From Thermodesulfobacterium commune DSM 2178 (lineage in GTDB: Bacteria > Desulfobacterota > Thermodesulfobacteria > Thermodesulfobacteriales > Thermodesulfobacteriaceae): a stretch of DNA of 32,000 bases. Each line of letters opens with the position of its first letter. The first letter of the stretch is position 1. The notes beneath the pieces were generated by a model. It made no database searches. It had not been told where the DNA came from and saw nothing but the letters and a program-made list of their open reading frames with translations. Shown one piece after another: positions 2,127 through 32,000 of this stretch. The position numbers and the translations under genes are program-made. The stretch is from assembly GCF_000734015.1 (NCBI RefSeq), contig NZ_CP008796.1, positions 1,110,001 through 1,142,000 of the forward strand. Direction: 5' to 3'.

Positions 2127-2735
2127 ATGAACTTAGGAGACAAACTTTTATACTATACAGAACGATTGCAACATTTTTTTGACCGCTATCTAAGGCTTAT
2201 CTTAGCTTGTGTGGTAATTCTTATAGGTATAGGAATTTTATGGAGTGGGGTTAAATACTATTTTGCTAAAAAAGAAAAAGAAGCTGCTCTTGAACTTTTA
2301 AAAGCTGTAAGCAGCCCTAACTTGATACCTTCATTAGAAGAGGTAACCAAAAAACATAAAAACACCTCAGCTGGATTAATATCTGCTATAATCCTCTCAG
2401 ACTATTACTATCAACAGAAGAATTTTAACAAAACCCAAGAACTTTTACTTATTTTAGAGAAAAAATATCCTGAAAAAATCAAAGGACTTGTTTGGTATTA
2501 TCAAGCTAAAATAGCCGAATCTCAAGGTAAATGGGACCAAGCCTTCGAACTTTATCAAAAAATCGACCAGAAATATCCTGACCTTCAAAATCTAATATTA
2601 TTAGACTTAGGTCGGGCGGCTGAAAAAATCGGTAAAACCCAGATAGCTAAAGAGTGTTATCAAAAGGCTCTAAATCAAACTCAAGATGAGGTTTTAAAAG
2701 GCATTGCCGAAACCAAAATAAAAAACCTAAACTAA
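2127..2735 (+). CDS. Membrane-anchored tetratricopeptide-repeat protein (YfgM-like)
   Basis: 202 aa. N-terminal hydrophobic helix LILACVVILIGIGILW followed by TPR-like repeats (YYYQQKNFNKTQELL, AKIAESQGKWDQAFELYQKI). It starts 4 nt after the upstream gene. Confidence 0.6.
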   Translation: MNLGDKLLYYTERLQHFFDRYLRLILACVVILIGIGILWSGVKYYFAKKEKEAALELLKAVSSPNLIPSLEEVTKKHKNTSAGLISAIILSDYYYQQKNFNKTQELLLILEKKYPEKIKGLVWYYQAKIAESQGKWDQAFELYQKIDQKYPDLQNLILLDLGRAAEKIGKTQIAKECYQKALNQTQDEVLKGIAETKIKNLN

Positions 2736-2738
2736 ACC

Positions 2739-3200
2739 ATGAGCCTTCTTATTTTTAAAAAGTTGGCCGAAGAAAAAATAAGAGAAGCCATGGAAAACGG
2801 AGAGTTTGACCATCTTGAGCTTAAAGGGAAACCCCTTAAACTTGAAGAAAATCCTTTTGTTCCTGAAGACCTAAGGGTAGTCTATAAAATACTTCAAAAC
2901 GCAGGGTTTCTACCTAAGGAAGTAGAACTCCGAAAAGAGATCTCTAAATTAGAAGAACTTTTAGAGGAAGACTTGCAAGATGCTTATTCAAAGGTTAAGA
3001 AACTTTCAACTCTTCTTTTTCATCTAAACCAAATAAGAAAAGGCCCTATAAACATTCCTGACGAATATTTTTGCAAAGTAGCTGAAAAAATCAAGCTGGC
3101 TAAAGAACGTAGTAAGGAACCTACAGAAAAAAAAGAAATCGATTGGATGAAACTTCAAACCTTTCTATACATTTCTTCTTTAAAGCCAAGAAAAAAATAA
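2739..3200 (+). CDS. DnaJ-like DUF1992 domain protein
   Basis: 153 aa. AEEKIREAMENGEFDHLELKGKPL..ENPFVPEDLR matches the DUF1992 (DnaJC28-like) N-terminal motif. Confidence 0.7.
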   Translation: MSLLIFKKLAEEKIREAMENGEFDHLELKGKPLKLEENPFVPEDLRVVYKILQNAGFLPKEVELRKEISKLEELLEEDLQDAYSKVKKLSTLLFHLNQIRKGPINIPDEYFCKVAEKIKLAKERSKEPTEKKEIDWMKLQTFLYISSLKPRKK

Positions 3201-3203
3201 ACG

Positions 3204-4337
3204 ATGAAAAAGTTGTCTGACGAATTTTTCATGAAACTTGCTATCAAAGAGGCGGAAAAAGGGTTAGGCTACACTTCTCCTAATCCAGTGGTAGGGGCGG
3301 TCCTGGTAGATCCTGTTACTCACACAGTAATCTCCAAAGGTTATCATAAGCACTACGGAGGACCTCATGCAGAAGTAGTAGCCATAGAAAAAGCAAGGGG
3401 GAGAACCCAAGGGGCTATCCTTTATGTTACCTTAGAGCCTTGCAACCATCATGGGAAAACCCCTCCGTGCACCGAAAAAATTTTAGCAAGTGGTATCCAA
3501 AAGGTGGTCTGTGGAATAAGGGACCCAAACCCTGTAGCTAAAGGAGGCCTTGAGTTTCTTGCTTCAAAAGGAATAGAAGTCAAAGCCGGGGTATTAGAAA
3601 GGGAAGTAAAAATTTTAACCCGTTTTTTTCTTAGCAGAATCCTAAGAAAAAGACCCTGGATTTTACTAAAAGTTGCGGCAAGCTTAGACGGCAAAATTGC
3701 TACTTCTACCGGTGATTCAAAATGGATAACCGGGGAAAAAGCAAGAGCATACGCCCATAAGCTAAGAGGAATGTTTGATGCCATCCTGGTTGGGAAAAAC
3801 ACGGTAGTTAAAGACAACCCCCTTCTTACCTGCAGGTTAAAAAAAGGAAAAAACCCTATAAGGATTATTCTTGATACCAATCTAAGTCTTAGCTTGGATT
3901 ATAAGGTCTTTCAAACCTTAGATGAAGCTCAAACGATTATAGTCTGCCAGGAAAAGGTGCCCCAAGAAAAAGAAAAAGCCTTTCAAAACGCAGGGGTTCT
4001 CGTTTGGAAACTTCCGTTAAAAAATAGCAAAATAGACCTGAACTTTTTGATGGAAAAATGTTTAGAACATGGTATCAACTCAATAATGGTTGAAGGAGGC
4101 GCCAGAGTCCATGGGAGTTTTTTAGAAGAAGGTTTGGTAGATGAGGTCTGTTACATGATCGGCCCTGTGATTATTGGAGATAAAAAAGGAATTTCTGCGA
4201 TAGAGAGAGATCCAATACCAACTCTTAAAGAGGCTGTACGCCTTCATGACCTAAATGTTAAAAAATTAGGAGACTCTTATATGTTTCATGGGTACACAGA
4301 GCAAGGGATTAGTCTTATCGAAACTCCTTTAAAATAG
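3204..4337 (+). CDS. ribD: Bifunctional riboflavin biosynthesis deaminase/reductase RibD
   Basis: 377 aa. Cytidine-deaminase zinc motifs HAEVVAI and PCNHHGKTPPC. The C-terminal reductase domain has KVAASLDGKIA and MVEGGA. Confidence 0.92.
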   Translation: MKKLSDEFFMKLAIKEAEKGLGYTSPNPVVGAVLVDPVTHTVISKGYHKHYGGPHAEVVAIEKARGRTQGAILYVTLEPCNHHGKTPPCTEKILASGIQKVVCGIRDPNPVAKGGLEFLASKGIEVKAGVLEREVKILTRFFLSRILRKRPWILLKVAASLDGKIATSTGDSKWITGEKARAYAHKLRGMFDAILVGKNTVVKDNPLLTCRLKKGKNPIRIILDTNLSLSLDYKVFQTLDEAQTIIVCQEKVPQEKEKAFQNAGVLVWKLPLKNSKIDLNFLMEKCLEHGINSIMVEGGARVHGSFLEEGLVDEVCYMIGPVIIGDKKGISAIERDPIPTLKEAVRLHDLNVKKLGDSYMFHGYTEQGISLIETPLK

Positions 4338-9335: not shown

Positions 9336-10479
9336 TTAAGTTTTTTGATTAAGCTTTTGCTTTGCATCCCACAGTAAATATTCCCGGATAAAATCGTCTA
9401 TCTCTCCATCTAAAACATCTTCCACCTTAAAAACCTCTAACTGGGTACGATGATCCTTTACCACCTTGTAAGGATGTAAGATATAACTTCTTATCTGATT
9501 ACCCCAACCTATTTCTTTTTTTTCACCGATCAGACTTTCTTTTTTCTGTTCAAGTTTTTGCTTTTCTAACTGATATAATCTTGATTTTAATATTTTCAAA
9601 GCTATGGCTTTGTTAAGATGTTGACTTCGCTCATTCTGGCAAGAAACCACTATCCCTGTAGGGATATGGGTAATCCTAACCGCACTTTCTGTTTTGTTAA
9701 CATGCTGGCCTCCGTGGCCACCTGCCCTCATAGTTTCAATCTTTAAGTCTTCAGGTCTTATCTCCACCTCTATGTTTTCGTCTATTTCAGGAATTACCGT
9801 TACCGAAGCAAAAGAAGTATGTCTTCTTGCATTAGCATCAAAAGGTGATATTCTAATCAACCTATGAATACCTTTTTCTCCTTTAAGATACCCATAAGCC
9901 CAAGAGCCTTCAACTAAAATTACTGCACTCTTTATCCCTGCCTCTTCTCCAGGCAGGCTGTCTACCAATTTTACCGAAAATCCCTTTTTTTCAGCCCACT
10001 TTACATACATCTTTAGCAACATATAAGCCCAGTCCTGAGCGTCTGTGCCTCCTGTTCCTGCATGGATGCTTAAAATGGCAGAAGAATAGTCATACTCATC
10101 GGAAAGAAGAAGCTTGCTTTCTTCTTTCTTTAGTTTTTTTTCAAACCGTTCTATGTCTTCAAAAAGGATTTCTAAATAATCTGGATTTTTTTCCTCTTTG
10201 TAAAGTTCATACCACTCAGAAAGGTTTAAAAAATCTTTTTCTAAATCTTCAAAAAGATTTAACCTTTCTATCAGGCTTGCACGCTCTTTAAGCAGGTTCT
10301 TAATAGAAGGGGATTCCCAGTCGATGTTGTTTTGTTGAAAAACTTCTTCTATCTGAGAAAGGCGTTTTTTGATAGAATCGGGGTCAAAGACACCCCCTTA
10401 AATCTTGAAGCTGTTCAGAAAAATAATTTAAAATCTTTTCTAAGTCTATGTTTTTATAAACCTGAGCCGCTGTTTTCAT
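9336..10479 (-). CDS. prfB: Peptide chain release factor 2, requiring a programmed +1 frameshift
   Basis: ORF1 (ATG at 10479) reads MKTAAQVYKNIDLEKILNYFSEQLQDLRGCL and stops at TGA 10386..10384. The +1 frame continues DPDSIKKRL... into the track ORF 9336..10022. That ORF contains the GGQ motif (AGGHGGQHVNK) and SPF. Confidence 0.92.
10383..10398 (-). promoter_or_regulatory. prfB autoregulatory +1 frameshift site
   Basis: The minus strand reads AGGGGG TGT CTT TGA C. This is an internal SD-like AGGGGG three nt upstream of the canonical CTT-TGA-C slippery/stop context. Confidence 0.9.
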
Positions 10480-11250: not shown

Positions 11251-12441
11251 TTATACCTCTTTTATCTTTTGAGCTAAAAGCCTTCCCAAATCTGCGCAGC
11301 TTTTAAGTACTTCTTGATTAGGAGCATACTTGCATTTTATACCTTCGTGGATAACCTCAGCCTGTATCTCTTTTAAATACTCGTTTAGCTGAGCTACTGC
11401 CTCTCCACTCCATCCGTAGGAACCAAAGGCAAACCCTAATTTTTTTCTCGGTCTAAGTCCTTTCATATAGGTTACAAAGGAAGCCATGGTAGGAAGCAGG
11501 TTGTTGTTAAGGGTGGAAGAACCTAAAACTACACCTTTAGCAAGCATAACCTCAGTCATCACATCTGTTATGTCAGAAACAGAAAGTTTAAACACCCTCG
11601 CCTCTACACCTTCTTTAACAACTCCTTCAGCAATAGCATAAGCCATCTTTTCGGTGCTCTTCCACATAGTATCATAAACTATCACCACCCGATTATCTGC
11701 CTCATAAGAACTCCACTTATCATAAAGTTCTAAAATGTCTTTTATCTTGCTTCTCCAAACCACACCATGGTCAGGACAAATGGTCTCTATTTCAAGACCT
11801 AAATCTTTTATGGTTTTTAACAGCTTTTGAACCTGAGGAGAAAAAGGTAAAACGATGTTAGCGTAATACTTAGCTGCCTCTTGGATTAAAACACAGTAGT
11901 CTACCTCGTCATCAAACCTTACACTGGTTGCGTAGTGCTGTCCAAAGGCATCCTGAGAAATAAGGATCTTCTCTTCAGGAATATAACTCACCATGCTATC
12001 AGGCCAGTGTATCATCGGGGTTTCTATAAACCGGATGGTTCTTTTACCTATCTTTACTTCGTATCCCGTCTTTACCTCTTCAAAGGGAAAGTCAGTGTTA
12101 TGTAGATAGGCAGAAAGCCCTAATTTTCCGTTTCTGGTAATGAAAATCTTTTCAGGGTTGATTTTTTGAGCAATATAGCTGAAACCTCCTGCATGGTCAG
12201 GTTCAATATGGTTTACCACTAAATAATCAATCTTTTCAGGATTGATTATCTTAGAAATACGCCCAAGCATCTCATCCTCAAAACCGTGTTTTACGGTATC
12301 AAACAGCGTAACCTTTTCATCGATCACAAGGTAACTATTGTAGGTAGTACCCTTAATGGTTGTGTAACCATGAAAATTTCTTACATGCCAGTCTACCGCT
12401 CCTACCCAATAAATCCCTTCTTTAATCTTAACTGGCTCCAT
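11251..12441 (-). CDS. fprA: A-type flavodiiron protein (FprA / rubredoxin:oxygen oxidoreductase-like)
   Basis: Metallo-beta-lactamase-like diiron motif NHIEPDHAG plus a C-terminal flavodoxin domain (VVIVYDTMWKSTEKMA). The track start (TTG at 12456) actually lies within the SD CAGGAGGAG. The real start is the ATG at 12441 (MEPVKIKEG). Confidence 0.9.
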   Translation of the reverse strand: MEPVKIKEGIYWVGAVDWHVRNFHGYTTIKGTTYNSYLVIDEKVTLFDTVKHGFEDEMLGRISKIINPEKIDYLVVNHIEPDHAGGFSYIAQKINPEKIFITRNGKLGLSAYLHNTDFPFEEVKTGYEVKIGKRTIRFIETPMIHWPDSMVSYIPEEKILISQDAFGQHYATSVRFDDEVDYCVLIQEAAKYYANIVLPFSPQVQKLLKTIKDLGLEIETICPDHGVVWRSKIKDILELYDKWSSYEADNRVVIVYDTMWKSTEKMAYAIAEGVVKEGVEARVFKLSVSDITDVMTEVMLAKGVVLGSSTLNNNLLPTMASFVTYMKGLRPRKKLGFAFGSYGWSGEAVAQLNEYLKEIQAEVIHEGIKCKYAPNQEVLKSCADLGRLLAQKIKEV

Positions 12442-12475
12442 AAACTCCTCCTGCAATCATTTAATATGTTTAGAG

Positions 12476-13510: not shown

Positions 13511-13891
13511 TTATGCGCCTTGCCAATATCCATGAAGGTTACACCACTCCTTAGCCACTACCTTGGCTGCTTTTACCTCAAACACCGCCTCAGGAGCCTC
13601 CCCAGGCTTCAAGAACTTAATGTAAACCTTATCTTCATCAGCATGCAACTCAATCCACTCTATGTAATGTTCCTCTGTCATGGGATGAGGCACACTTCCT
13701 ACCTTTACCTTATAGACATCTCCTTCTTTTTCTATCACAGGAACATGCTTCTCAACGGCCGCATCCACTGTATTAGGAGTTTGTAACTCCATAGGTTTTC
13801 CACAACAAACCAACTGACCTTTTCCTCCATGCATCACCAACACTATGTTTCCACAGACCTGACATTTATAAAGTCCAAGTTTTTCCGCCAT
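13511..13891 (-). CDS. dfx: Desulfoferrodoxin (2Fe superoxide reductase)
   Basis: 126 aa. N-terminal desulforedoxin domain [10 protein letters not shown]...LVCCGKPM and a C-terminal SOR domain (EKHVPVIE...[14 protein letters not shown]). Confidence 0.92.
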
Positions 13892-20816: not shown

Positions 20817-20837
20817 TTAAACTAACAGGAGGTCTTG

Positions 20838-23800
20838 ATGGAGCCGTTAGTCAGAAAAAGAAACGGCAAAGTTGTTCCTTTTTCTCGTTTTAGGATCATA
20901 AACGCTATCCATAAGGCTATGAAGGCTACCCAAATAGGCACCAAGGCTGATGCTGAAAAAATAGCTGATGCTGTTTCTATCTTTCTTTACAGAAATTATT
21001 TTAAAAAGGGAGACATTCCTCATGTGGAAACCATCCAGGACATCATAGAAAGAACTTTGATGGAAAGAGGGTTCCCTGAGGTAGCTAAGGCTTATATTCT
21101 TTATCGTGAAAAGAGGCGTCAGGCAAGAGAAATCGGGCAAGCCTTAGTTGACGGTATTAACCTTATAGAGGAATATATCGGCAATGAAGACTGGAGGGTA
21201 AAGGAAAACTCTAACATGAGTTTTAGCCTTCAAGGGCTTAATTTTCATGTAAGTTCTTCTATCGTTGCCCGTTATTGGTTAGAAAAGCTTTATCCTAAGG
21301 AAATCGCCGAAGCTCATAGAGAAGGGGACTTTCATATTCATGACCTTGGCTGTCTTTCAGCCTATTGCATGGGATGGGACCTATATGACCTTCTTTTAAG
21401 AGGATTTGGAGGGGTGAGTGGTAAGGTTGAAAGTGCCCCTCCTAAGCATTTTAGGTCTGCCCTTGGACAGATAGTAAACTTCTTTTATACCCTTCAAGGA
21501 GAAGGGGCTGGGGCTCAAGCCTTTTCTAACTTTGATACCCTCCTTGCTCCTTTTGTAAGGTATGACAAACTAACCTACCCTGAAGTAAAACAATGTATGC
21601 AGGAGTTTCTCTTTAATGTAAATGTGCCAACCAGAGTAGGTTTTCAATGCCTTTCTGAAGATACAGAAATTTTAACTCCAAATGGTTGGAAGAGGTGGAA
21701 TGAAGTTAATGAAGGAGATTTTATCTATACTTTTAATCTTGAAAAGGGGACTATAGAACCTGCAAAGGTTACTTATGTGTTTAGAAGGAAGTATGAAGGC
21801 ATAATGTATAACTTAAAAAATCGCAACCAGGATCAGCTTATCTCACCTGGCCATAGAGTTGTAAGACAAATATTTAATACAGATAAATTTATCCTTCAGC
21901 CTATTGAGGAGATACTTGGGTTTAAATCTCCTATTCCAATACCTGTTACAGGAGAAAACTCAAAAGAAGATTATCCCATTTCAGATGAGGAATTAAAGCT
22001 TTGTGCCTGGGTTCTTTCAGAGGGTTCAATAGAAAAAGACGGATCTAAAAGAGTTAGTATTTATCAGTCTAAGGAAAAACATCCTGAAAATTACGAAGAA
22101 ATCAAGGCTTTACTTGAAAAATTGAACCTTAAATATACGGAAAGAGAACAGGAATCCTGGGGGAAATGTATCCATATAAGACTTTCTCCAGAGTCAAGCA
22201 AGTTTGTTCATGCGGTAATGGGAAATCCAAAAAAGATATTCCCTTTTTATCTTTATCAGTTAAGTAAAAGACAGGCTCGTCTTTTCCTTGAAACTTATGC
22301 TAAGGGTGATGGATGGATTGATGGAGGGAGGATAAGAATTACAACTACTGATAAAGATTTTGCTGATGGACTTATGGCAGTGGGAGTTCTCGCAGGATAC
22401 AATGTTTCCATAAGAGAACGCAAACCCGAAATAAATAATAAAAAATTAAGATATGAGCTAACCTTTACTCAGACTAAAACTGATTATATCCAACAAATAG
22501 ATAAGGTTCCTTACTGTGGTATCATCTGGTCAGTTCATACCGAAAATGAAACTGTAATTGCAAGAAGAGCTGGGCAGGTGTTTATAACTGGAAATACACC
22601 TTTTACCAATCTTACCTTTGATCTTAAGCCTTCAAAGCTTTATGCCAAGGCAAATGTCATAATAGGAGGGAAACCTCAAGACAGTGTGTATGAGGAGTTT
22701 CACAAAGAAATGTCTATGATAAACAGGGTTTTCTGTGAGTTAATGATGGCAGGAGATGCTAAGGGAAGGATTTTTACCTTTCCTATTCCTACTTATAACA
22801 TCACTAGGGATTTTGACTGGGATAATCCTGAATATGAACCTCTCTGGGAGATGACCAGAAAATACGGGATACCTTATTTTGCAAACTTTGTCAACTCAGA
22901 CATGGACCCAGAGGATGCCTTCAGCATGTGTTGTAGGCTTCGTCTTGACAAGAGAGAACTGAGGAAAAGAGGAGGAGGGTTGTTTGGGGCTAACCCTTTG
23001 ACCGGAAGTATAGGGGTGGTTACCATCAACATGCCAAGGCTTGGATATCTTGCTACCTGTGAAGAGGATCTTTTTGAAAGGTTAGAAAGGTTGATGGAAC
23101 TTGCTAAGGTATCCCTTGAGATCAAAAGAAAAGTGATCGAGGATTTTACTGAAAAAGGACTTTATCCATATTGTAAAGTTTACCTAAGCTCGGTAAAAGA
23201 GGCGAGAGGTGCTTACTGGGCTAACCATTTTTCTACCATAGGACTTGTAGGGTTGAATGAGATGTGTCTTAACTTTTTAGGTAAGCCCATATATGATCCA
23301 GATGCCAAGGAATTTGCTATAAAGGTATTAAAGTTTATGAGAGATAAAATTGCAGACTTTCAGGAAGAAACAGGAAATCTTTACAATCTTGAGGCCACCC
23401 CAGCAGAAGGAACAAGCTACAGACTGGCAAAAATTGACAAGAAAAAATTCCCTAGGATCAAAACCGCAGGTACTGAAGAAGCTCCTTACTACACTAATTC
23501 TTGCCATCTCCCTGTTAACTATACAGACGATATTTTTGAGATACTTACCCATCAAGATGACCTACAGATACTTTTTACTGGTGGAACGGTCGTTCATCTT
23601 TTTATCGGAGAAGAAATCCATGATACCAACGTGGTAAAGGACCTGGTAAAAACCGTGGTAGAAAACTTTAGGCTTCCCTATTTTTCCATCACACCCACCT
23701 TTTCTGTCTGTCCTGTACATGGCTATCTACCTGGGAGACATGACTTCTGCCCCTATCCTCATTCTGAAGCTGACTTAAACAGGTTTGGGGTAGAAATGGA

Positions 23801-23849
23801 GCTTCCGATTAGTCTGGCTAAAAATTTTGCTAATACAGCTATAAGTTAA
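20838..23849 (+). CDS. nrdD: Anaerobic (class III) ribonucleoside-triphosphate reductase NrdD, intein-containing; it ends before the glycyl-radical motif
   Basis: N-terminal ATP-cone (VRKRNGKVVPF...ILYREKR). Class III core, and the first part of the C-terminal zinc knuckle (FSVCPVHGYLPGRHDFCPY). ATG at 20838, 5 nt after AGGAGG; the track start at 20835 is TTG. TAA at 23847..23849. Confidence 0.9.
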   Translation: MEPLVRKRNGKVVPFSRFRIINAIHKAMKATQIGTKADAEKIADAVSIFLYRNYFKKGDIPHVETIQDIIERTLMERGFPEVAKAYILYREKRRQAREIGQALVDGINLIEEYIGNEDWRVKENSNMSFSLQGLNFHVSSSIVARYWLEKLYPKEIAEAHREGDFHIHDLGCLSAYCMGWDLYDLLLRGFGGVSGKVESAPPKHFRSALGQIVNFFYTLQGEGAGAQAFSNFDTLLAPFVRYDKLTYPEVKQCMQEFLFNVNVPTRVGFQCLSEDTEILTPNGWKRWNEVNEGDFIYTFNLEKGTIEPAKVTYVFRRKYEGIMYNLKNRNQDQLISPGHRVVRQIFNTDKFILQPIEEILGFKSPIPIPVTGENSKEDYPISDEELKLCAWVLSEGSIEKDGSKRVSIYQSKEKHPENYEEIKALLEKLNLKYTEREQESWGKCIHIRLSPESSKFVHAVMGNPKKIFPFYLYQLSKRQARLFLETYAKGDGWIDGGRIRITTTDKDFADGLMAVGVLAGYNVSIRERKPEINNKKLRYELTFTQTKTDYIQQIDKVPYCGIIWSVHTENETVIARRAGQVFITGNTPFTNLTFDLKPSKLYAKANVIIGGKPQDSVYEEFHKEMSMINRVFCELMMAGDAKGRIFTFPIPTYNITRDFDWDNPEYEPLWEMTRKYGIPYFANFVNSDMDPEDAFSMCCRLRLDKRELRKRGGGLFGANPLTGSIGVVTINMPRLGYLATCEEDLFERLERLMELAKVSLEIKRKVIEDFTEKGLYPYCKVYLSSVKEARGAYWANHFSTIGLVGLNEMCLNFLGKPIYDPDAKEFAIKVLKFMRDKIADFQEETGNLYNLEATPAEGTSYRLAKIDKKKFPRIKTAGTEEAPYYTNSCHLPVNYTDDIFEILTHQDDLQILFTGGTVVHLFIGEEIHDTNVVKDLVKTVVENFRLPYFSITPTFSVCPVHGYLPGRHDFCPYPHSEADLNRFGVEMELPISLAKNFANTAIS
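21648..22595 (+). mobile_element. Intein (316 codons) with a LAGLIDADG homing-endonuclease domain, inserted in nrdD
   Basis: The junctions are VGFQ|CLSEDTEILTPNGW ... GQVFITGN|TPFTNLTF. Block B reads SPGH. Two LAGLIDADG-like motifs are present (LCAWVLSEGSI and LFLETYAKGDGWI). Block F-like IIWSVHTENETVIA. The C-terminal Asn is followed by a +1 Thr. Confidence 0.85.
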
Positions 23850-25436: not shown

Positions 25437-25462
25437 AGGGATAACCTTGAGGGGTTATCCCT
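25437..25462 (-). terminator. Hairpin downstream of the porin gene
   Basis: AGGGATAACC-TTGAGG-GGTTATCCCT is a 10-bp perfect stem, 24 nt after the porin stop. The T tract is weak on the minus strand. Confidence 0.5.
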
Positions 25463-25485: not shown

Positions 25486-26637
25486 TTAAAAAGTTAAGTT
25501 TAGCCTTACCCCGAAGATATGACCTTTATTTTCTGGGTTTTCCTCGTACTTAAGCCTATCTTTCATCCATTGCCAGTCAAAGGTGAGATGTGAGGCAAAG
25601 AGTTTTTCTTTTTCGTATATAGGAACAGAAAGATAGGCTTCTACAGCTTGTGTATGTTTTAGTTCTTCGTTTTTGGAAGAGGCTTTAAGGTAAGCGTAAC
25701 CTACCCCTAATTCAACGTTTTTTACACCAAAGGGTTTAAACTTATAGTTCAACCCTAAGGAATACATGCTTTTGTAGTCTATTTCTGCGTCATCATCCTG
25801 AAAACCAGCTCTTGCAAAAACCCCAAGGGTATCTTTGATTATATCCTGGTCTATAGAAATACCCCAGCCTTTTAAGGCCTTTTTCTTTTCTCCATCCCAA
25901 TCAGGGAAACGCTTGTTGGTAGTAAAGACAAAAACCCGATAGTTTCCTTCTCCAAGAGAGGTTTCTAATTTATACCCTACCTGAGCAGCATAATAATTAT
26001 AAGTTTTCTTGTCAAACCTCGGGTCCTCATTCTCGTCAGTTTTACTTTGCATCCCCAATAAGGCTAAACTAAAAGGCCCCTTAGACCACTCTACAGCTAC
26101 CCCGTAGTCATAACTTACAAGGTTAGCCAACGGGTTGTTTACAAAAGCCTCGTTCATAAACTGGGTCAATTCATCGTTTGCAAACCGGTTTTGGTCGATG
26201 AAAGCGGTTGCGTCTATGATTCCCAAGGTTGTTTTAAGGGTTGAGTTGCCTGGTAGATCAAAGGTTCTTGCATACCAAAGTTCTTGCAAATGGTCTCTTG
26301 AACGGTTGTTGATGTTGTGAAGGTCATCCCTGAGGTCATCTGAATTAGGGGAGAGTTTAAAAGGACTAACCTTTTTTAATCCATTTCCTTTGGCAAAACT
26401 ACCTCTTACAGAAAATTCATCCTTTTCTGTAGGTTTAAACGTAACCCTTGCGTCAAGAACCACAGACCCTTTTTCCTCGTCCTTAAAATCTCCCTTTCTC
26501 TTATCTAACCACTGGTAAACCCCTGTCAAGTTTGCCTCGATAGAGAGTTTTTCGTTTACCTCATAAGCCTTAGCCTTAACAGGAACTCCAAAAACCAAAA
26601 GACCTAAGGACAAGGTCGTAAAAACCTTTCTTATCAT
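25486..26637 (-). CDS. Outer-membrane beta-barrel porin (possibly OprB/carbohydrate-porin-like)
   Basis: 383 aa. Signal peptide MIRKVFTTLSLGLLVFGVPVKAKA, alternating beta-strand pattern, and a C-terminal ...GVRLNLTF ending in Phe. It lies downstream of feoB. Confidence 0.65.
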   Translation of the reverse strand: MIRKVFTTLSLGLLVFGVPVKAKAYEVNEKLSIEANLTGVYQWLDKRKGDFKDEEKGSVVLDARVTFKPTEKDEFSVRGSFAKGNGLKKVSPFKLSPNSDDLRDDLHNINNRSRDHLQELWYARTFDLPGNSTLKTTLGIIDATAFIDQNRFANDELTQFMNEAFVNNPLANLVSYDYGVAVEWSKGPFSLALLGMQSKTDENEDPRFDKKTYNYYAAQVGYKLETSLGEGNYRVFVFTTNKRFPDWDGEKKKALKGWGISIDQDIIKDTLGVFARAGFQDDDAEIDYKSMYSLGLNYKFKPFGVKNVELGVGYAYLKASSKNEELKHTQAVEAYLSVPIYEKEKLFASHLTFDWQWMKDRLKYEENPENKGHIFGVRLNLTF

Positions 26638-26727
26638 AATCTCCCCCCTGATTTAGTTTTAGCTACATGTTTTTACAATTTTAACATAAACTTTAAAGTT
26701 GTGCCACCTTTATCATAAAAATAATTT

Positions 26728-28872
26728 TTATAAAATTAACCTTGCAAGATGATAAACTACAAAAGATACTATCCAGGCAACGATAAAGGTAACCAAAATT
26801 ATCTGACAAACGAACTTAAAGGATCCTGCTTCTATCCTCACGGTTGCTGCATAAACCATGCATGGAAAATATAGGAGTACAAAAACCATAAAAGAAAGAG
26901 CTGAAGCAGGGGTAAACCTATTTTGAAGTTCAGATAAAATACCTGTACCTTCTTCTGATACCTCTGCCGTGAGGGTAACGATCCTAAAAGTAGAGATCAG
27001 ATTAACCCCTACTTCTTTTGTTTTTTCAGCAAAAAGCAAAATCAATTCTTTAAGGTCTTCTTTAAAAGAAAGTTCCTCTTGGGGATTATCTTCAACATCT
27101 CCACCATAAATTTGTGCCATCGTTGAAACTATAACCTCTTTTGCAGGAAACCCTGCCAAAAGGCTGGCACTACTTGCCCAATCTCCAAAACCGAGAGGTT
27201 TAAAAATAGGGGCTATCAGATGTCCTGTTTTGCCTAAGATTGAGTCTTCAGGTTTTTCAGGCTTCCAGGGAAGGTTCAGTGCCATCCATATGAGAACATT
27301 AAACGCCAAAACCAAAGTCCCTGCTTTGACCACAAAATGTTTTAGCTTAAGCCAGGTGTGGATGGCAAGATTTTTAAGGGTAGGGATACGATAAGGCGGT
27401 AGTTCCATGATGAAAGGTCCGCTAACCCCCTTAAAATAGGTTTTGTGAAGAATAACAGCAAGGCTAAGAGCTACAGCTATACCCAACAGATAGATGAAAA
27501 GAAGCACCGCTGCTGAGTGAGTTGCAAAAAAAGCTGCCACAAACAAAGCATAAACTGGCAGTCTTGCTCCACAAGACATAAAAGGAACTATAAACATCGT
27601 AAGTTTTCTCTCATGCTCCTGTTCTAAAGTTCTACAAGCATATACAGACGAAACATTACAACCAAACCCCATAAGAAGAGGGATAAAAGCTTTTCCCTGA
27701 AGACCAAAGTATCTCATGATTCTATCCATAAGAAAAGCCGCCCTTGCCATATAACCTGTAGCTTCAAGAAAGGTTATCATAAACATGATCATCCCGATGA
27801 TAGGAATAAAAGACAACACAGTCCCTACTCCTACCCAAATACCATCCACCATAAGGGAAATTAACCAGTCTGTTATCCCTGCAGAGGAAAGCCCTGCCTC
27901 TATCCATTTTCTAAAAACTTCATTTATAGCTTTGTCCAAAAAATCTATGTAAGGGTTAGCTACATCAAACGCAACCTTAAAAGAAAGCCACATCACCAGA
28001 AGAAAAAGAGGTATACCTAAGATCCTGTTTAAAACTATCTTGTCTATCTTTTCTGTAAAGGTCTCCCGTCTGATTTCTGGACGTTGAAGCACCATTTTGG
28101 CAATCCCGGTTGCTAAACCATACCTGACATCAAGCAAGTAATCACTAAACTCTACCTCGTGGACTGTCTTAATGTGTTTGAGGATGTTTTCTATTTCTCT
28201 TCTATCAAGCTCAATACCCAACTTTTTTAAAAGATCCTCCTCTCCCTCTAACAACTTAAAAACCACAGCCAAGCTTACCCTTTCTAAATCCGGTTTTACC
28301 GCTTTTATACGGTATAAAATCGTTTTTATTAAATCCTCTAACTCCTCTCCATAAGGAAGCTTAGTTGGCACGATTGCCCTTTCAAAGACTTCGATCAAGG
28401 CCTCCTTAATTTCTTCAACTCCCTGTTCTTTCACCGCTACCGTTGGGATTGCCTTTACTTTAAGGATTTCTTGTAAAAGTTCTATGTCTACCTTATATCC
28501 AAGTTTTTTTGCCTCATCAAACATATTCAAGGCAATTACCATAGGCTTTTCAAGTTCTATCAGTTGTACCACAAAATAAAGGTTTCTTTCAAGATTTGTG
28601 GTATCAACCACACATAAAATAACGTCGTAGTCTTCAAGAAAGAGAAAATCTCTGGTAATGGTTTCGTCTACGGTATAAGGGGTTAAACTGTAAGTACCAG
28701 GCAAGTCGATGAAGTGTAAAATATAATTTTTATAGGATAGTTTTGCCTGTTTTTTTTCTACCGTTACCCCAGGCCAGTTGCCAACTTGAAGGTTAGCCTT
28801 GGCAATGGCGTTTATCAAACTTGATTTACCTGTGTTAGGATTACCAACCACTGCTATCTTTATTTCTTTCAT
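26728..28872 (-). CDS. feoB: Ferrous iron transporter FeoB
   Basis: 714 aa. N-terminal G domain (VGNPNTGKSSL, DLPGTYSL) followed by a polytopic membrane domain. Confidence 0.93.
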   Translation of the reverse strand: MKEIKIAVVGNPNTGKSSLINAIAKANLQVGNWPGVTVEKKQAKLSYKNYILHFIDLPGTYSLTPYTVDETITRDFLFLEDYDVILCVVDTTNLERNLYFVVQLIELEKPMVIALNMFDEAKKLGYKVDIELLQEILKVKAIPTVAVKEQGVEEIKEALIEVFERAIVPTKLPYGEELEDLIKTILYRIKAVKPDLERVSLAVVFKLLEGEEDLLKKLGIELDRREIENILKHIKTVHEVEFSDYLLDVRYGLATGIAKMVLQRPEIRRETFTEKIDKIVLNRILGIPLFLLVMWLSFKVAFDVANPYIDFLDKAINEVFRKWIEAGLSSAGITDWLISLMVDGIWVGVGTVLSFIPIIGMIMFMITFLEATGYMARAAFLMDRIMRYFGLQGKAFIPLLMGFGCNVSSVYACRTLEQEHERKLTMFIVPFMSCGARLPVYALFVAAFFATHSAAVLLFIYLLGIAVALSLAVILHKTYFKGVSGPFIMELPPYRIPTLKNLAIHTWLKLKHFVVKAGTLVLAFNVLIWMALNLPWKPEKPEDSILGKTGHLIAPIFKPLGFGDWASSASLLAGFPAKEVIVSTMAQIYGGDVEDNPQEELSFKEDLKELILLFAEKTKEVGVNLISTFRIVTLTAEVSEEGTGILSELQNRFTPASALSFMVFVLLYFPCMVYAATVRIEAGSFKFVCQIILVTFIVAWIVSFVVYHLARLIL

Positions 28873-29099
28873 CCTATCACCTCCACCTCTATCAACTCTG
28901 CCTCTTTTTTTCTGATAGAAAGATGATATCCTCGCACTTCTACATCTACAGGGTCAGCAAGAGGAGCAATCCTAACTATTTGAAGCTCAACCCCAGGGGT
29001 TATACCCATTTCCTTTAGGCGTTGTTTTACCGATGGCGGTCCTTCAACAGAAACTACTTTAACTCTCTTCCCTAAATTAACCTTAGAAAGTTTGGGCAT
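28869..29099 (-). CDS. feoA: Ferrous iron transport protein FeoA
   Basis: 76 aa. LGKRVKVVSV...RLKEMGITPGVELQIVRIAPLADPVDVEV..HLSIRKKEAELIEV is the FeoA SH3-like pattern. It overlaps feoB by 4 nt. Confidence 0.88.
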   Translation of the reverse strand: MPKLSKVNLGKRVKVVSVEGPPSVKQRLKEMGITPGVELQIVRIAPLADPVDVEVRGYHLSIRKKEAELIEVEVIG

Positions 29100-29115: not shown

Positions 29116-29790
29116 TTAAGATTTGGTTATCAAACCTAACCAACCCCTTATTCTTTCCTCCATGCTAAGAAAAATGTCTACTATTTCTGGGTCAAACTGA
29201 GAACCTGAGCCTTTTTTGAGTTCTTCCAAAGCTTCTTCGAAACTTAAAGGTTCTCTGTAAGGGCGATTGTCTGTCATCGCAGAAAAAGCGTCAGCTACAG
29301 CTATTATCCTTGCTCCAAGAGGTATTTCCCGTTTTTTTAGACCTGCAGGATAACCCTTTCCATCCCATCTTTCATGATGATAAAGCACCATCTCTATAAC
29401 CCCACCTTTGCCTTGAAAAATCCTGATATCCTTGAGATAATCTGCCCCAATCACTGGATGTTTTTTGACTATATTCCACTCCTGCTGTGTTAAAGGACCT
29501 GGTTTTTTCAAGATTTCATCAGGTAGAGCAAACTTTCCGATATCATGGAGATGTCCTGCTATATGAATAAGGTCTGCCAGTTTAGGAGGAAGCCCTAAGG
29601 CTAAAGCAAGCATGTAGCTTAACACAGCTACTTTTTCTGAGTGGTATTTGGTATACAGGTCTTTACTTTCCATGAGATTGGTCAAGACTTCACAAATTTG
29701 ATGAACAGTAACCATCAGAGGTTGACATTTTTCTATCTGACAACATAATTCTACGATTTCAGGGTCATAAAGGCACTGTTTGGCCAACAT
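29116..29790 (-). CDS. HD-GYP domain c-di-GMP phosphodiesterase
   Basis: 224 aa. HLHDIGKFALP and YHHERWDGKGYP are the HD and GYP signatures. Confidence 0.88.
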   Translation of the reverse strand: MLAKQCLYDPEIVELCCQIEKCQPLMVTVHQICEVLTNLMESKDLYTKYHSEKVAVLSYMLALALGLPPKLADLIHIAGHLHDIGKFALPDEILKKPGPLTQQEWNIVKKHPVIGADYLKDIRIFQGKGGVIEMVLYHHERWDGKGYPAGLKKREIPLGARIIAVADAFSAMTDNRPYREPLSFEEALEELKKGSGSQFDPEIVDIFLSMEERIRGWLGLITKS

Positions 29791-29795
29791 CTTCC

Positions 29796-30554
29796 CTACT
29801 CCTCACAAACAGAAACTGAGTTCTTCCCAGACCTTTTTGCTTGATAAAGGGCCTTATCAGTCATTTCAAAAAGTAGTTCCAGGGGTCTAACCGGGGGAGC
29901 TCCACAAATCCCAAGACTTACGGTAACTTTTAAAGGTTGACCCTGCCACCAGACAACATGGTTAGCCACAGCCCTTCTTATACGCTCGGCAATCAACTTT
30001 CCTAACTCAAGGGTAGTATTTTTTAATAACAAGGCTATTTCCTCTCCACCCCATCTAACAGCCAGGTCTGTTTTCCTGAGGTTGGTTTTGATGACTTGAG
30101 AGATATCTTTTAAAACCCTATCTCCTGCTTGGTGCCCAAAGGTGTCGTTGAATCTTTTAAAATCATCCACATCTGCTAAAACCAAGCAATACGGTGGGTT
30201 GGCTAACTCTTTTCTTAAGAGATTTTCAGCAAACTGTCGTGTTAGAAGACCTGTCAACTGGTCAACCCTTGCAAAATCTCTCAACATCTCATAGGAGGTT
30301 TTCAACGGTCTAACCAAGATATACTTTAGGAATGCTTTATCTAAAGCTACTCTACTTTCGTTAAACCTGACTACCACCCTATCTCCAAAAGGGTCCTGAT
30401 GGATAATTTCTACCAAAGTTCCCTCCTGAACGCCAATGCTTTTTAACCTCAGGCTTAAGTCAAAGGAAGAAATACATATCACCTCAGCCAATTCTCCTAA
30501 TGGGAAGTTAGACAGGGGATAAACGGTAAATTTTTGACATTTTCGTATACTCAT
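29796..30554 (-). CDS. FeoA-domain / GGDEF-domain fusion protein (putative diguanylate cyclase)
   Basis: 252 aa. The N-terminus is FeoA-like: LGELAEVICI...RLKSIGVQEGTLVEIIHQDPFGDRVVVRFNESRVALDKAFLKYILV. The C-terminus is GGDEF-like: DVDDFKRFNDTFGHQAGD and RWGGEEIALLL. An RKTD I-site-like motif lies 5 residues before GGEEI. Strong SD AAGGAGGGAGG. Confidence 0.8.
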   Translation of the reverse strand: MSIRKCQKFTVYPLSNFPLGELAEVICISSFDLSLRLKSIGVQEGTLVEIIHQDPFGDRVVVRFNESRVALDKAFLKYILVRPLKTSYEMLRDFARVDQLTGLLTRQFAENLLRKELANPPYCLVLADVDDFKRFNDTFGHQAGDRVLKDISQVIKTNLRKTDLAVRWGGEEIALLLKNTTLELGKLIAERIRRAVANHVVWWQGQPLKVTVSLGICGAPPVRPLELLFEMTDKALYQAKRSGKNSVSVCEE

Positions 30555-30574
30555 CCCTGCCTCCCTCCTTTTAA

Positions 30575-30907
30575 CTATGATTTATGGTTTGTTTTAAGAA
30601 CCATTATTTTCATCGCCAGTTTTCGGCTTAGCGCGATAAAAGTTTCTTCTACCCTAAGAAGAATAGGATTACCTGGCTTGTTTTGTTTTACCTCTACTAC
30701 CTGCCCGGGTTTAAGCCCCATAGACCCAATCTTTTGGTTAACAACATCTTTTTTACCTCTTAGACAACACTTAACACCACCACAACCTCTACAGGTATAC
30801 CAAGAATCAACCTTTAAGTCTGAAGAAAGAGAATAGATTTTGCCAAGCTCTCCTTCTCTAAGAAGAGCTAAAGGGATTAATCCCTTTTCTTTTAAACCCT
30901 CAACCAT
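30575..30907 (-). CDS. FeoA-like protein with a Cys-rich insertion
   Basis: 110 aa. The FeoA-like ends are LREGELGKIYSL... and ...IGSMGLKPGQVVEVKQNKPGNPILLRVEETFIALSRKLAMKIMV. They flank an inserted SWYTCRGCGGVKCCLRGKK. SD GGGAGG. Confidence 0.65.
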   Translation of the reverse strand: MVEGLKEKGLIPLALLREGELGKIYSLSSDLKVDSWYTCRGCGGVKCCLRGKKDVVNQKIGSMGLKPGQVVEVKQNKPGNPILLRVEETFIALSRKLAMKIMVLKTNHKS

Positions 30908-30967
30908 GTCTGACCTCCCTTATTTAATTTATTCTGCATTTCATTTGCAATAAATAGACAAAAAAAT

Positions 30968-31246
30968 TTAGGCATGCACCCTTAACTGGGTAATAAGTTT
31001 TTTGATTCTACAAAGACCTTTGGACCGGCAAAAGATACATTTTTTCTTACCGCAACTTTTAGCAAGCTTAACAAGCTCATGAGATACACATCCTGTTATT
31101 ATGATTATGTAATCAGCTGATGAAAGGGTATAAGGAGCTTGAGGAGACCATCTGTTAATAAACCTGAGTTTCAGCTGGTTTTCTTTAGCATATTCTTCTA
31201 ACTAAGGTTTTAACCTATCGTGCCCTCCTACGACCACAACTGTCAT
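30968..31246 (-). pseudogene. DUF2325-like gene with an in-frame TAG at codon 15
   Basis: Hand translation gives MTVVVVGGHDRLKP*LEEYAKENQLKLRFINRWSPQAPYTLSSADYIIIITGCVSHELVKLAKSCGKKKCIFCRSKGLCRIKKLITQLRVHA*. The TAG is at 31204..31202. SD AGGAGGG lies upstream. There is no alternative start after the stop. Confidence 0.55.
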
Positions 31247-31294
31247 ACCTACCCTCCTGTTTGTTTTTACCATCCTGCTTTTTAAAATTGCAAT

Positions 31295-31309
31295 TGAAAT
31301 TAAATCTCA
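31295..31309. promoter_or_regulatory. Fur-family-like 7-1-7 dyad overlapping a minus-strand promoter
   Basis: The minus strand reads TGAGATT-T-AATTTCA, within the larger AATTGA-N9-TCAATT (31292..31312). It overlaps the putative -10 TAAATT (31314..31309), which lies 16 nt downstream of TTGACA (31336..31331). That promoter faces the DUF2325/feo genes. Confidence 0.35.
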
Positions 31310-31390
31310 ATTTACTCATATTTTTTATTTTGTCAAGTCTTTTTAGAATGTTTAAATTTTAAATTTTTAGGGTATTTGAATTTTTACCCC

Positions 31391-31466: not shown

Positions 31467-32000
31467 ATGGAAGAGGTAAAAGAAGTAATCAGTATGCCAA
31501 GGATTGGAGACCAAGCTCCAAGTTTTGAGGCTATGACCACGATGGGACCTATCAAGTTTCCAGAAGACTTTAAAGGACAGTGGGTGGTGTTCTTTTCCCA
31601 TCCGGCAGACTTTACTCCAGTTTGTTCTACCGAGTTTTTAGCCTTTGCTCAGATGAACGAAGAGTTTGCCAAAAGAAACGTTCAGCTTTTAGGTTTAAGC
31701 ATAGACAGCGTGTTCTCTCACATCGCCTGGGCTATGAACCTAAAAGAAAAAACCGGAATAGAGATTCCCTTCCCTATAGTAGCTGATGCTGATGGTAGAG
31801 TAGCAAAGCTTTATGGGATGTTACATCCAGGAGAAAGTTCCACCGCTACCGTAAGGGCTGTTTTTATCATAGACCCTAACGGTAAGATAAGGGCTATAAT
31901 TTACTATCCTCTTTCTGCAGGAAGAAACATGAGAGAAATCTTAAGGTTGATTGATGCCTTACAAACTGCTGACAAGCATGGGGTAGCCACTCCTGCCAAC
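31467..32000 (+). CDS. Peroxiredoxin (Prx6/1-Cys-like AhpC/TSA family), truncated by the window edge
   Basis: The ATG at 31467 opens a frame that runs to the window end: [57 protein letters not shown]... This includes the peroxidatic Cys motif. The ORF is open-ended, so it is absent from the track. The track ORF 31580..31786 is off-frame inside it. Confidence 0.88.

Follow-up and report, generated by a model that had tools for sequence, protein, structure and literature searches.

Introduction

Known links between iron and cyclic di-GMP (c-di-GMP) are of two kinds: Fur controls the transcription of cyclases and phosphodiesterases, or metal cofactors act in catalytic and heme sensor domains (PMC13492106). 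Vibrio and Yersinia offer examples of cyclase genes under Fur control (PMC13492106). Here we analyse a stretch of 32,000 nucleotides of the Thermodesulfobacterium commune DSM 2178 genome (RefSeq assembly GCF_000734015.1, contig NZ_CP008796.1, positions 1,110,001 to 1,142,000 of the forward strand), called the window below. Its ferrous-iron uptake (feo) operon encodes a FeoA domain fused to a GGDEF domain, a protein that we name FG, followed by a stand-alone HD-GYP protein. We tentatively read this pair as a c-di-GMP turnover cassette for iron limitation, in which cyclase activity would depend, through the FeoA domain, on Feo or iron status, and the signal would be reset by the metal-dependent HD-GYP enzyme; we give this reading a probability of about 45%.

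Cyclases with a sensor domain and an I-site, of the PleD, WspR, DgcZ and DosC type, have in common with FG the GGDEF fold, the RxxD spacing, a short linker helix and the specificity Asp. FG differs from them by its input, a FeoA SH3-like domain, and by its A-site, GGEEI. The HD-GYP protein of the window shares with PmGH of Persephonella marina the HD dyad, the HHExxDGxGYP motif and seven of the eight metal ligands. Contrary to PmGH-type enzymes, it is stand-alone, has no GAF or REC input and carries Tyr46 at the position of the third-metal ligand E185.

In the regulators DtxR, IdeR and MntR, too, the FeoA fold is part of a signalling protein that responds to metal, a response that for FG is proposed by analogy. 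Their SH3 domain lies C-terminal to a DNA- and metal-binding core, whereas that of FG is N-terminal and constitutes the sole input of an enzyme. In the Fur-repressed cyclase genes hmsT of Yersinia and cdgD and vca0560 of Vibrio, iron controls c-di-GMP synthesis via transcription, as we propose for FG. These cyclases have no FeoA domain and lie outside feo operons; FG would add a post-translational link.

The feoB-2 locus of Geobacter sulfurreducens (Rodionov et al. 2004) shares with the window two different FeoAs, FeoB, an OprB porin, a nearby DUF2325 gene and a Fur-box-like palindrome. In the window the cassette sits between the two feoA genes and the porin comes last, whereas in Geobacter the cassette follows feoB and the porin comes first. 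The KN400-type region has an FG and an HD-GYP of its own, 39% and 50% identical to the window proteins, respectively, and orthologous to them. Unlike the window, this region (KN400_3199-3206) is flanked by a FezB ferrosome cluster; it has been annotated but not studied.

The pairing of a sensor-fused cyclase with a phosphodiesterase is well known in itself. What is new here is the FeoA input and the conserved placement amid iron import and storage genes. A sequence-only reading of the window had taken the arrangement to be undescribed. This holds for function: our literature search yielded neither a functional study nor a paper that describes FeoA as the input of a cyclase. It does not hold for all prior notice, which consists of one annotation phrase in Butler et al. 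2012, where KN400_3199-3206 are placed between the orthologs of GSU3265 and GSU3267, and of the prediction by Rodionov et al. 2004 that the Fur regulon of Desulfovibrio includes GGDEF and HD genes (PMC545781). The literature searched does not mention gdp (DVU0763), the Fur-regulated GGDEF gene of Desulfovibrio. A 2026 review on metals and c-di-GMP does not mention Feo or FeoA (PMC13492106), and a paper on Feo evolution notes an additional domain on FeoA in some instances, saying no more (PMC8749426).

Results

Organization of the cluster

The genes and signals of the cluster, all on the minus strand, are the following (window coordinates).

31331-31336, minus: -35 box TTGACA, from a promoter scan
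31294-31310, minus: palindrome TTGAGATTTAATTTCAA, a candidate Fur-type operator, over the -10 box and the start region
30967-31246, minus: DUF2325 gene, which opens the cluster (the intact ortholog scores E 2.2e-16 against Pfam DUF2325)
30575-30907, minus: type-2 FeoA paralog of 110 aa with the Cys-bearing loop insert YTCRGCGGVKCC (Pfam FeoA, E 3.4e-13)
29796-30554, minus: FeoA::GGDEF fusion (FG), 252 aa (Pfam, NCBIfam, family alignments and AlphaFold2, AF2)
29116-29790, minus: stand-alone HD-GYP protein, a predicted phosphodiesterase of 224 aa (Pfam HD_5, PF13487, E 2.8e-41)
28869-29099, minus: canonical type-1 FeoA, 76 aa (Pfam FeoA, E 2e-21)
26728-28872, minus: FeoB ferrous-iron transporter, 714 aa (TIGR00437 feoB, E 8.8e-180)
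25486-26637, minus: OprB-family outer-membrane porin, 383 aa, the final gene (Pfam OprB, E 1.2e-12)
25437-25462, minus: intrinsic-terminator-like hairpin after the porin (10-pair stem with 5 GC pairs and a T-rich tail, from a scan)

The gene order, coordinates and spacers given by the sequence-only reading were all reproduced: every open reading frame (ORF) was confirmed, and Pfam and NCBIfam agree with each assignment. That reading had overlooked the DUF2325 gene at the head, the promoter with its Fur-box-like palindrome, the terminator, and that GGEEI is particular to this species. From the 110-aa FeoA through FG, HD-GYP and the second FeoA to FeoB, the spacers calculated from ORF coordinates are 20, 5, 16 and -4 nt; in the last, the feoA stop and the feoB start overlap by 4 nt. 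The spacer between feoB and the porin is 90 nt. Because a promoter lies upstream and a strong terminator comes after the porin, DUF2325 through the porin looks like a single transcription unit. The cluster diverges from a peroxiredoxin gene.

FeoB has the Pfam domains FeoB_N, FeoB_Cyto, two Gate domains and FeoB_C. With its G-domain, Gate and FeoB_C and an adjoining FeoA, the locus thus encodes a Feo system. The OprB porin gene is also present in L083, L085, L088, L099 and the G. sulfurreducens locus L122 (L numbers designate the loci retrieved in our searches).

In the 110-aa FeoA, the Pfam match is limited to residues 48-103, because the Cys-bearing insert splits the domain. The protein sorts with FeoAs of the IPLALL-EGE...ESRIA...AMKIxV type (type 2), and its orthologs in L083, L085, L088, L089 and L001 have two invariant Cys in a GC...C pattern. 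Cys inserts occur in the same loop of type-2 FeoAs from the window (30575-30907), L098 (3246-3518), L082 (50-280) and L122 (4498-4773), for example CRGCGGVKCC, QCRCNNCNC and HCSGLC. Such inserts may form a metal or redox site, in systems without FeoC.

The DUF2325 frame of the window has an in-frame TAG at codon 15 (31202-31204). In eight conspecific contigs, all of which encode an identical FG, this codon is CAG (Gln), and the gene is intact in relatives; the TAG is either a nonsense change from C to T that is private to the window sequence or an error in the sequence. A DUF2325 protein of Campylobacter is under PerR control (PMC9426514). Around the cluster, oxygen-defence genes on the plus strand encode a flavodiiron protein (11251-12456), desulfoferrodoxin (13511-13891) and the divergent peroxiredoxin (~31468-32000).

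FG consists of a FeoA domain and a GGDEF domain

FG, which is 100% identical to a protein annotated as coming from Thermodesulfobacterium sp., is laid out as a FeoA SH3-like domain (residues ~11-83), a short helix (86-96) and a GGDEF domain (95-245). The FeoA domain matches Pfam PF04023 with E 2.3e-14 and 53.7 bits, against a cut-off of 23; residues 13-83 align with profile positions 2-74 of 74, that is 73 of the 74 positions. The GGDEF domain matches Pfam PF00990 (E 1.4e-39, residues 95-245) and TIGR00254 (E 1.2e-39). Pfam finds neither a helix-turn-helix nor a Fe_dep_repress domain in the protein. FG departs from the usual form of FeoA, as it is neither free nor joined to FeoB but fused to GGDEF.

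The full-length AF2 model, built from a family alignment of 15 sequences 36-90% identical to the window FG, has a mean predicted local distance difference test (pLDDT) of 85. Its C-terminal domain superposes on solved GGDEF domains with a best root-mean-square deviation (rmsd) of 1.5-1.9 Å; the matches 3IGN, 4ZVG and PleD fall at 1.5-3 Å. The N-domain was modelled alone (pLDDT 79.5), because the full-length fold search returned GGDEF matches only. Its top Foldseek matches are then the FeoA structures 3E19, 2K4Y, 2K5F, 2K5L, 7R7B and 3MHX, with a target TM-score of 0.65-0.85 and an rmsd of 1.2-2.1 Å; for 3E19 the values are E 1.6e-6, target TM 0.85 and 2.0 Å. SH3-like domains of DtxR, IdeR and MntR regulators (5ZR4, 7B24 and 3HRU) follow in a second tier. 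The model confirms for the N-domain a predicted SH3-like β-barrel of the FeoA fold with an inserted helix, so that the fold proposed for it earlier is borne out by both the Pfam profile and the match to FeoA structures.

The N-domain resembles type-2 FeoA when compared with the stand-alone FeoAs of the same loci. Throughout the 15-sequence alignment its invariant residues are E21, E24, L37, G41, G45, D54, V81 and P83; E24 (of a GExxE motif), D54 and a VRP motif set it apart from these stand-alone FeoAs. No His or Cys is conserved in the FeoA domain across this alignment. Besides FeoA, no further Pfam input domain was recorded in the family members examined.

In the GGDEF domain, the I-site R160-K-T-D163 is separated by LAVRW from the A-site G169-G-E-E-I173, a five-residue spacing. 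R160 and D163 are invariant in the family, as are D128, D130, K133, N136 and D145, which serve GTP and metal binding and guanine specificity; their equivalents in PleD numbering we take to be D327, K332, N335 and D344. FG keeps its catalytic residues apart from the A-site Phe and is a predicted cyclase. In the Hypr class of GGDEF proteins, a Ser or Thr replaces the guanine-specificity Asp. A Hypr-GGDEF (cyclic GMP-AMP, cGAMP, synthase) reading of FG was rejected, as D145 is retained and invariant.

The A-site of the window protein preserves both Gly and the catalytic Glu residues and has Ile for Phe at the fifth position. Each of the 14 other sequences aligned reads GGEEF or GGDEF here. The GGEEI form is peculiar to the window species within the family; a paralog in L098 is degenerate separately. 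An identical GGEEI protein occurs on at least 29 contigs among those listed, and in 48 blocks of the index. The literature searched contained no mention of the GGEEI variant. A change of Phe to Leu is reported to abolish WspR activity (PMC4331095), and GGEEL is the motif of Bacillus subtilis DgcP, which is listed among cyclases (PMC5422440).

The HD-GYP partner

The HD-GYP protein has its dyad at H82-D83 and the motif Y137-HHERWDGKGYP-148, with GYP at 146-148. The signature motifs claimed for both enzymes by the sequence-only reading (RKTD and GGEEI in the cyclase, HD and HHERWDGKGYP in the phosphodiesterase) are thus present at mapped residues. The closest solved relative of the HD-GYP protein is PmGH (4MCW, E 2.3e-36). 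When compared with the PmGH ligand set E185, H189, H221, D222, H250, H276, H277 and D305, seven of the eight metal ligands are kept, as H50, H82, D83, H111, H138, H139 and D167. Tyr46, in the local sequence Y-T-K, stands in place of E185, and none of the FG-linked HD-GYPs has a Glu or Asp ligand at this position. Bellini et al. assign such HD-GYPs to a Y/F subfamily with a predicted binuclear centre (PMC4159591). By its sequence, the window protein belongs to this subfamily and is predicted to be binuclear.

The metal of HD-GYP enzymes can be Fe2+, Mn2+ or Mg2+, and for some of them activity is seen with Fe2+ only (PMC13492106; PMC4159591). The cGAMP-specific HD-GYP 5Z7C scores nearly as high as PmGH against the window protein; because of these almost equal scores, we infer the c-di-GMP substrate from the partner cyclase.

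The HD-GYP protein also has a Cys-rich N-terminal extension, residues 1-25 (29716-29790), with C6, C16, C17 and C22. This extension is shared with L083 and partly with L001, and a single Cys occurs in L085. It is absent from the partners outside the Thermodesulfobacteriaceae, both Geobacter-type and low-GC.

FG and HD-GYP behave as a co-inherited cassette

FG proteins are rare: 20 non-redundant clusters remain after collapse at 90% identity and addition of the Geobacter locus. A first search gave 11 FG clusters, and a metagenome scan with a four-sequence N-domain alignment gave 15 further loci. Profile search of 1.84 billion representatives returned at least six full-length, single-stretch FG matches, in a list crowded by multi-GGDEF proteins. 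In a genome-collection scan with the full-length alignment, 79 of 80 loci were unrelated cyclases, because the patterns came from the GGDEF domain; L001 alone was useful. The N-domain profile run against a 5.8-billion-protein set gave 12 matches, mostly fragments, and missed known members, and it was not used as a census.

HD-GYP directly follows FG in 15 of the 19 informative clusters. The two reading frames overlap in L081, L082, L087, L099 and L122, and the pairwise identities of FG and HD-GYP co-vary (r = 0.82, 55 locus pairs). Because of the frame overlap and the co-varying identities, the two genes behave as a co-inherited cassette. The survey shows the synteny of FG and HD-GYP, on which the earlier proposal depended, to be strongly conserved across loci. 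Within the retrieved sequences, feoB is present in 8 clusters, a stand-alone feoA in 10 and DUF2325 in 12.

L098 has a second FG paralog (2503-3228), whose A-site reads DDNDEF instead of GGEEF. It keeps both RxxD positions (RGD), the FeoA domain and the GExxE motif, and is a candidate for a c-di-GMP receptor form.

The cassette lies amid iron genes

The FG/HD-GYP cassette is found almost always amid iron-acquisition or iron-storage genes. In Thermodesulfobacteriaceae relatives (57-75% identity), the window order is kept: DUF2325, type-2 FeoA, FG, HD-GYP, type-1 FeoA, FeoB and OprB. In L099, of a low-GC lineage, the cassette lies upstream of feo, in the order porin, FG, HD-GYP, FeoA, FeoA, FeoB. 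It lies downstream of feo in L109, L115 and the G. sulfurreducens locus L122. L098 presents a divergent fur, DUF2325, the degenerate FG paralog, two FeoAs and FG, then a TonB system. No feoB is near the cassette in L001, L081, L082 and L087.

GC-rich loci are of the types DUF2325-FG-HD-GYP, flavodoxin-FG-HD-GYP and FeoB-FG-HD-GYP; in others, FG stands amid heme-utilisation, ZnuA-like, TonB-receptor and Fur-family genes. Fur genes adjoin the cassette in L098 and L110, flavodoxin and hemP in L082 and L087. ATPases with the FezB motifs DYSCA and HNxxT are found beside FG-HD-GYP in L081/L114, L082 and L113.

The placement inside a feo operon noted earlier is therefore true of the Thermodesulfobacteriaceae, but elsewhere the cassette is upstream or downstream of feo, without feoB, or beside FezB clusters. 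Because its position relative to feo varies, the link is with the iron-limitation gene set generally and not with Feo alone. The same variability argues for selection for co-location with iron genes rather than for one historical accident. Chance or an insertion accident was considered as the origin of the gene order and rejected, since 20 clusters hold the cassette together while its position varies.

Geobacter loci

In G. sulfurreducens AP017912.1 (L122), the gene order is PccH, DUF3793, DUF2325, OprB, FeoA, FeoA, FeoB and a FeoB-associated peptide, then FG (249 aa), HD-GYP (242 aa), hemP, four small genes and a P-type ATPase. The motifs are intact in both FG and HD-GYP. In L109, FG is preceded by a FeoB with 89-90% identity to the FeoBs of Geobacteraceae metagenome-assembled genomes (MAGs) and 82% identity to G. 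sulfurreducens FeoB-2.

At 9110-12244 of L122, the cassette is beside a FezB-type (P1B-6) ATPase cluster with R-rich small proteins, as it is in L081, L082 and L113. KN400_3199 is listed as a FezB homolog (bioRxiv 10.1101/2020.01.10.902569). The same ferrosome study reports FeoA, FeoB, Fur and DtxR near fez clusters and never mentions GGDEF (bioRxiv 10.1101/2020.01.10.902569).

Promoters and candidate Fur sites

The palindrome TTGAGATTTAATTTCAA directly follows the -35 box in four of five Thermodesulfobacteriaceae promoters (window, L083, L088 and L001). Its pattern, which is partly derived from this same site, has one match in the 32-kb window where 0.26 are expected. At the promoters examined, there was no convincing match to the E. 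coli-type and Bacillus-type Fur boxes. Matches to the AT-rich delta-proteobacterial Fur box occur in GC-rich loci upstream of FG-containing operons, in L081, L082, L113 and L109 (via DUF2325). In G. sulfurreducens, matches are found at the published PccH site and just before hemP-fez. Taken as sequence patterns, these sites suggest Fur-type control of the cluster.

A further, AT-rich palindrome, ATAAAAATAATTTTTAT, overlaps the feoB stop upstream of the porin (26715-26731), with two mismatches to the delta-proteobacterial Fur box, and a promoter-like site lies at 26707-26678, also upstream of the porin. The porin may be under an iron-regulated promoter of its own. A Fur-regulated porin beside feoAAB has been predicted (PMC545781).

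Other features of the window

The anaerobic ribonucleotide reductase NrdD (20835-23849, plus strand, 1004 aa) has a LAGLIDADG homing-endonuclease domain at residues 480-542, and likely carries an intein. In L083, NRDD matches fall on two called genes (686 and 58 aa), the larger of which reaches the end of the retrieved locus. Of a class-I release factor, the ORF at 9336-10022 (minus strand) covers the C-terminal two-thirds alone, with matches to PCRF profile positions 121-194 and to RF-1. The programmed +1 frameshift of prfB is well known, and this ORF is consistent with it.

Discussion

The cassette reading given above can be put as a sequence of conditional steps. One promoter, shut at high iron by a Fur-type repressor, would bring the cyclase, the phosphodiesterase and the transporter together in starvation. 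The FeoA domain of FG would dock on FeoB or on a FeoA/FeoB assembly, by analogy with stand-alone FeoA. GGDEF domains are active only as dimers. Docking on an oligomeric transporter could set the pairing of two GGDEF domains, and the cyclase output would then report transporter occupancy or state. The binuclear centre of HD-GYP would require Fe2+ (or Mn2+), like characterised relatives; poorly active when cytosolic Fe2+ is scarce, the enzyme would turn on once Feo restores iron, hydrolyse c-di-GMP and reset the signal. The c-di-GMP level would thus be a readout of ferrous-iron supply that feeds lifestyle outputs or acts back on iron import and storage. In the window strain, the module may be weakened by GGEEI and by the DUF2325 nonsense codon.

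Several observations weigh against this reading. About half of the clusters are without feoB within the retrieved sequence, and in a Caldimicrobium MAG (L001) the first five cluster genes are kept with no feoB beside the cassette; a strictly FeoB-dependent mechanism therefore needs action in trans. The whole cassette region is absent from G. sulfurreducens PCA, hence dispensable, and the close Geobacteraceae relative L121 (MAG contig JBGGIX010000019.1) lacks FG and HD-GYP while it keeps DUF3793, DUF2325, FeoA, FeoA, FeoB and the FeoB-associated peptide. Because of these two absences, we regard the cassette as accessory; even inside one family its distribution is patchy. As for the window protein, its GGEEI, where relatives have GG[DE]EF, makes cyclase activity uncertain. 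On the side of regulation, the L085 promoter has a different palindrome, and TTGAGATTTAATTTCAA matches the delta-proteobacterial Fur box WTGAAAATNATTTTCAW (PMC545781), a consensus from another lineage, at 14 of 17 positions. Finally, no c-di-GMP receptor was identified in the cluster.

The coupling could be more local. In a transporter-associated circuit, the state of FeoB, in nucleotide binding or in transport, would be read by the FeoA domain and cytosolic ferrous iron by an Fe2+-requiring phosphodiesterase, and c-di-GMP would feed back on Feo and on FezB ferrosomes; we hold this to be somewhat unlikely. The FeoA domain might instead be the sensor itself, which would bind Fe2+, another metal or a small ligand and switch the cyclase without touching FeoB. 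Such a sensor would suit the many cassettes with no nearby feoB (L001, L081, L082, L087, L104-L108 and L110), although short contigs may just not reach it. The invariant acidic residues E24 (GExxE) and D54, absent from same-locus stand-alone FeoAs, point in the same direction, as do the second-tier matches to the SH3 domains of metal-dependent repressors and the zinc bound in the FeoA crystal 3MHX. However, the domain has no conserved His or Cys, and direct sensing seems unlikely to us; physiological metal binding by FeoA is, to our knowledge, not established. Control could also be reversed, with FG a c-di-GMP-responsive FeoA: c-di-GMP bound at RxxD would change FeoB engagement and gate uptake, while HD-GYP tunes the local pool. 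GGDEF domains that have degenerated but keep their I-site form a recognised class of c-di-GMP receptors. RxxD is invariant in the 15 members and survives in the L098 paralog with its degenerate A-site, and the A-site of the window is atypical. An I-site would nonetheless be equally expected in an ordinary product-inhibited cyclase, and all other members seen, except the L098 paralog, retain GG[DE]EF and the GTP and metal residues, which suggests that catalysis is under selection; we find such a reversal quite improbable. The logic of a degenerate GGDEF as receptor is also used in PMC4331095.

It is conceivable that the location brings nothing but co-regulation: ordinary lifestyle-switch enzymes would be under iron control, and the FeoA domain would be a dimerisation or scaffold module. 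Fur control of cyclase transcription is a known link between iron and c-di-GMP (PMC13492106), and the frequent loss of an accessory cassette also speaks for this view. Co-regulation alone leaves unexplained the choice of FeoA as the only input domain seen, the invariant residues down to 36-39% identity, and the tight, co-diverging pairing with one HD-GYP lineage, and we rate it as distinctly unlikely. We know of no FeoA domain otherwise outside Feo and DtxR contexts. The module might, lastly, be decaying and non-functional in the window genome, F173I and the DUF2325 nonsense codon being signs of relaxed selection. The GGEEI form is indeed unique to the window species within the family, the TAG is private to the window sequence, and loss of the cassette is documented elsewhere. 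But the nonsense codon may reflect an error of sequencing or assembly, or an event confined to one strain, and an aliphatic fifth residue need not preclude activity, as DgcP, with its GGEEL, is listed as an active cyclase (PMC5422440). Since the identical GGEEI protein recurs on at least 29 listed contigs (48 index blocks) with intact frames in all six genes, the variant would be fixed and maintained, not degrading, and we regard decay as very improbable.

In the field of bacterial iron transport, what FeoA does has long been an open question. With FeoA naturally joined to an enzyme whose product is easily measured, FG is a direct handle on what FeoA binds or senses. In KN400-type G. sulfurreducens the cassette lies between the feo and fez clusters, and strain PCA, without it, is a natural deletion in a tractable organism. 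A dedicated FeoA input, if true, would add a post-translational route between iron and c-di-GMP. The transporter-associated circuit, if it exists, would add to the iron homeostasis of anaerobes a layer based on a second messenger, and its cyclase would be the first enzymatic reporter of FeoA sensing.

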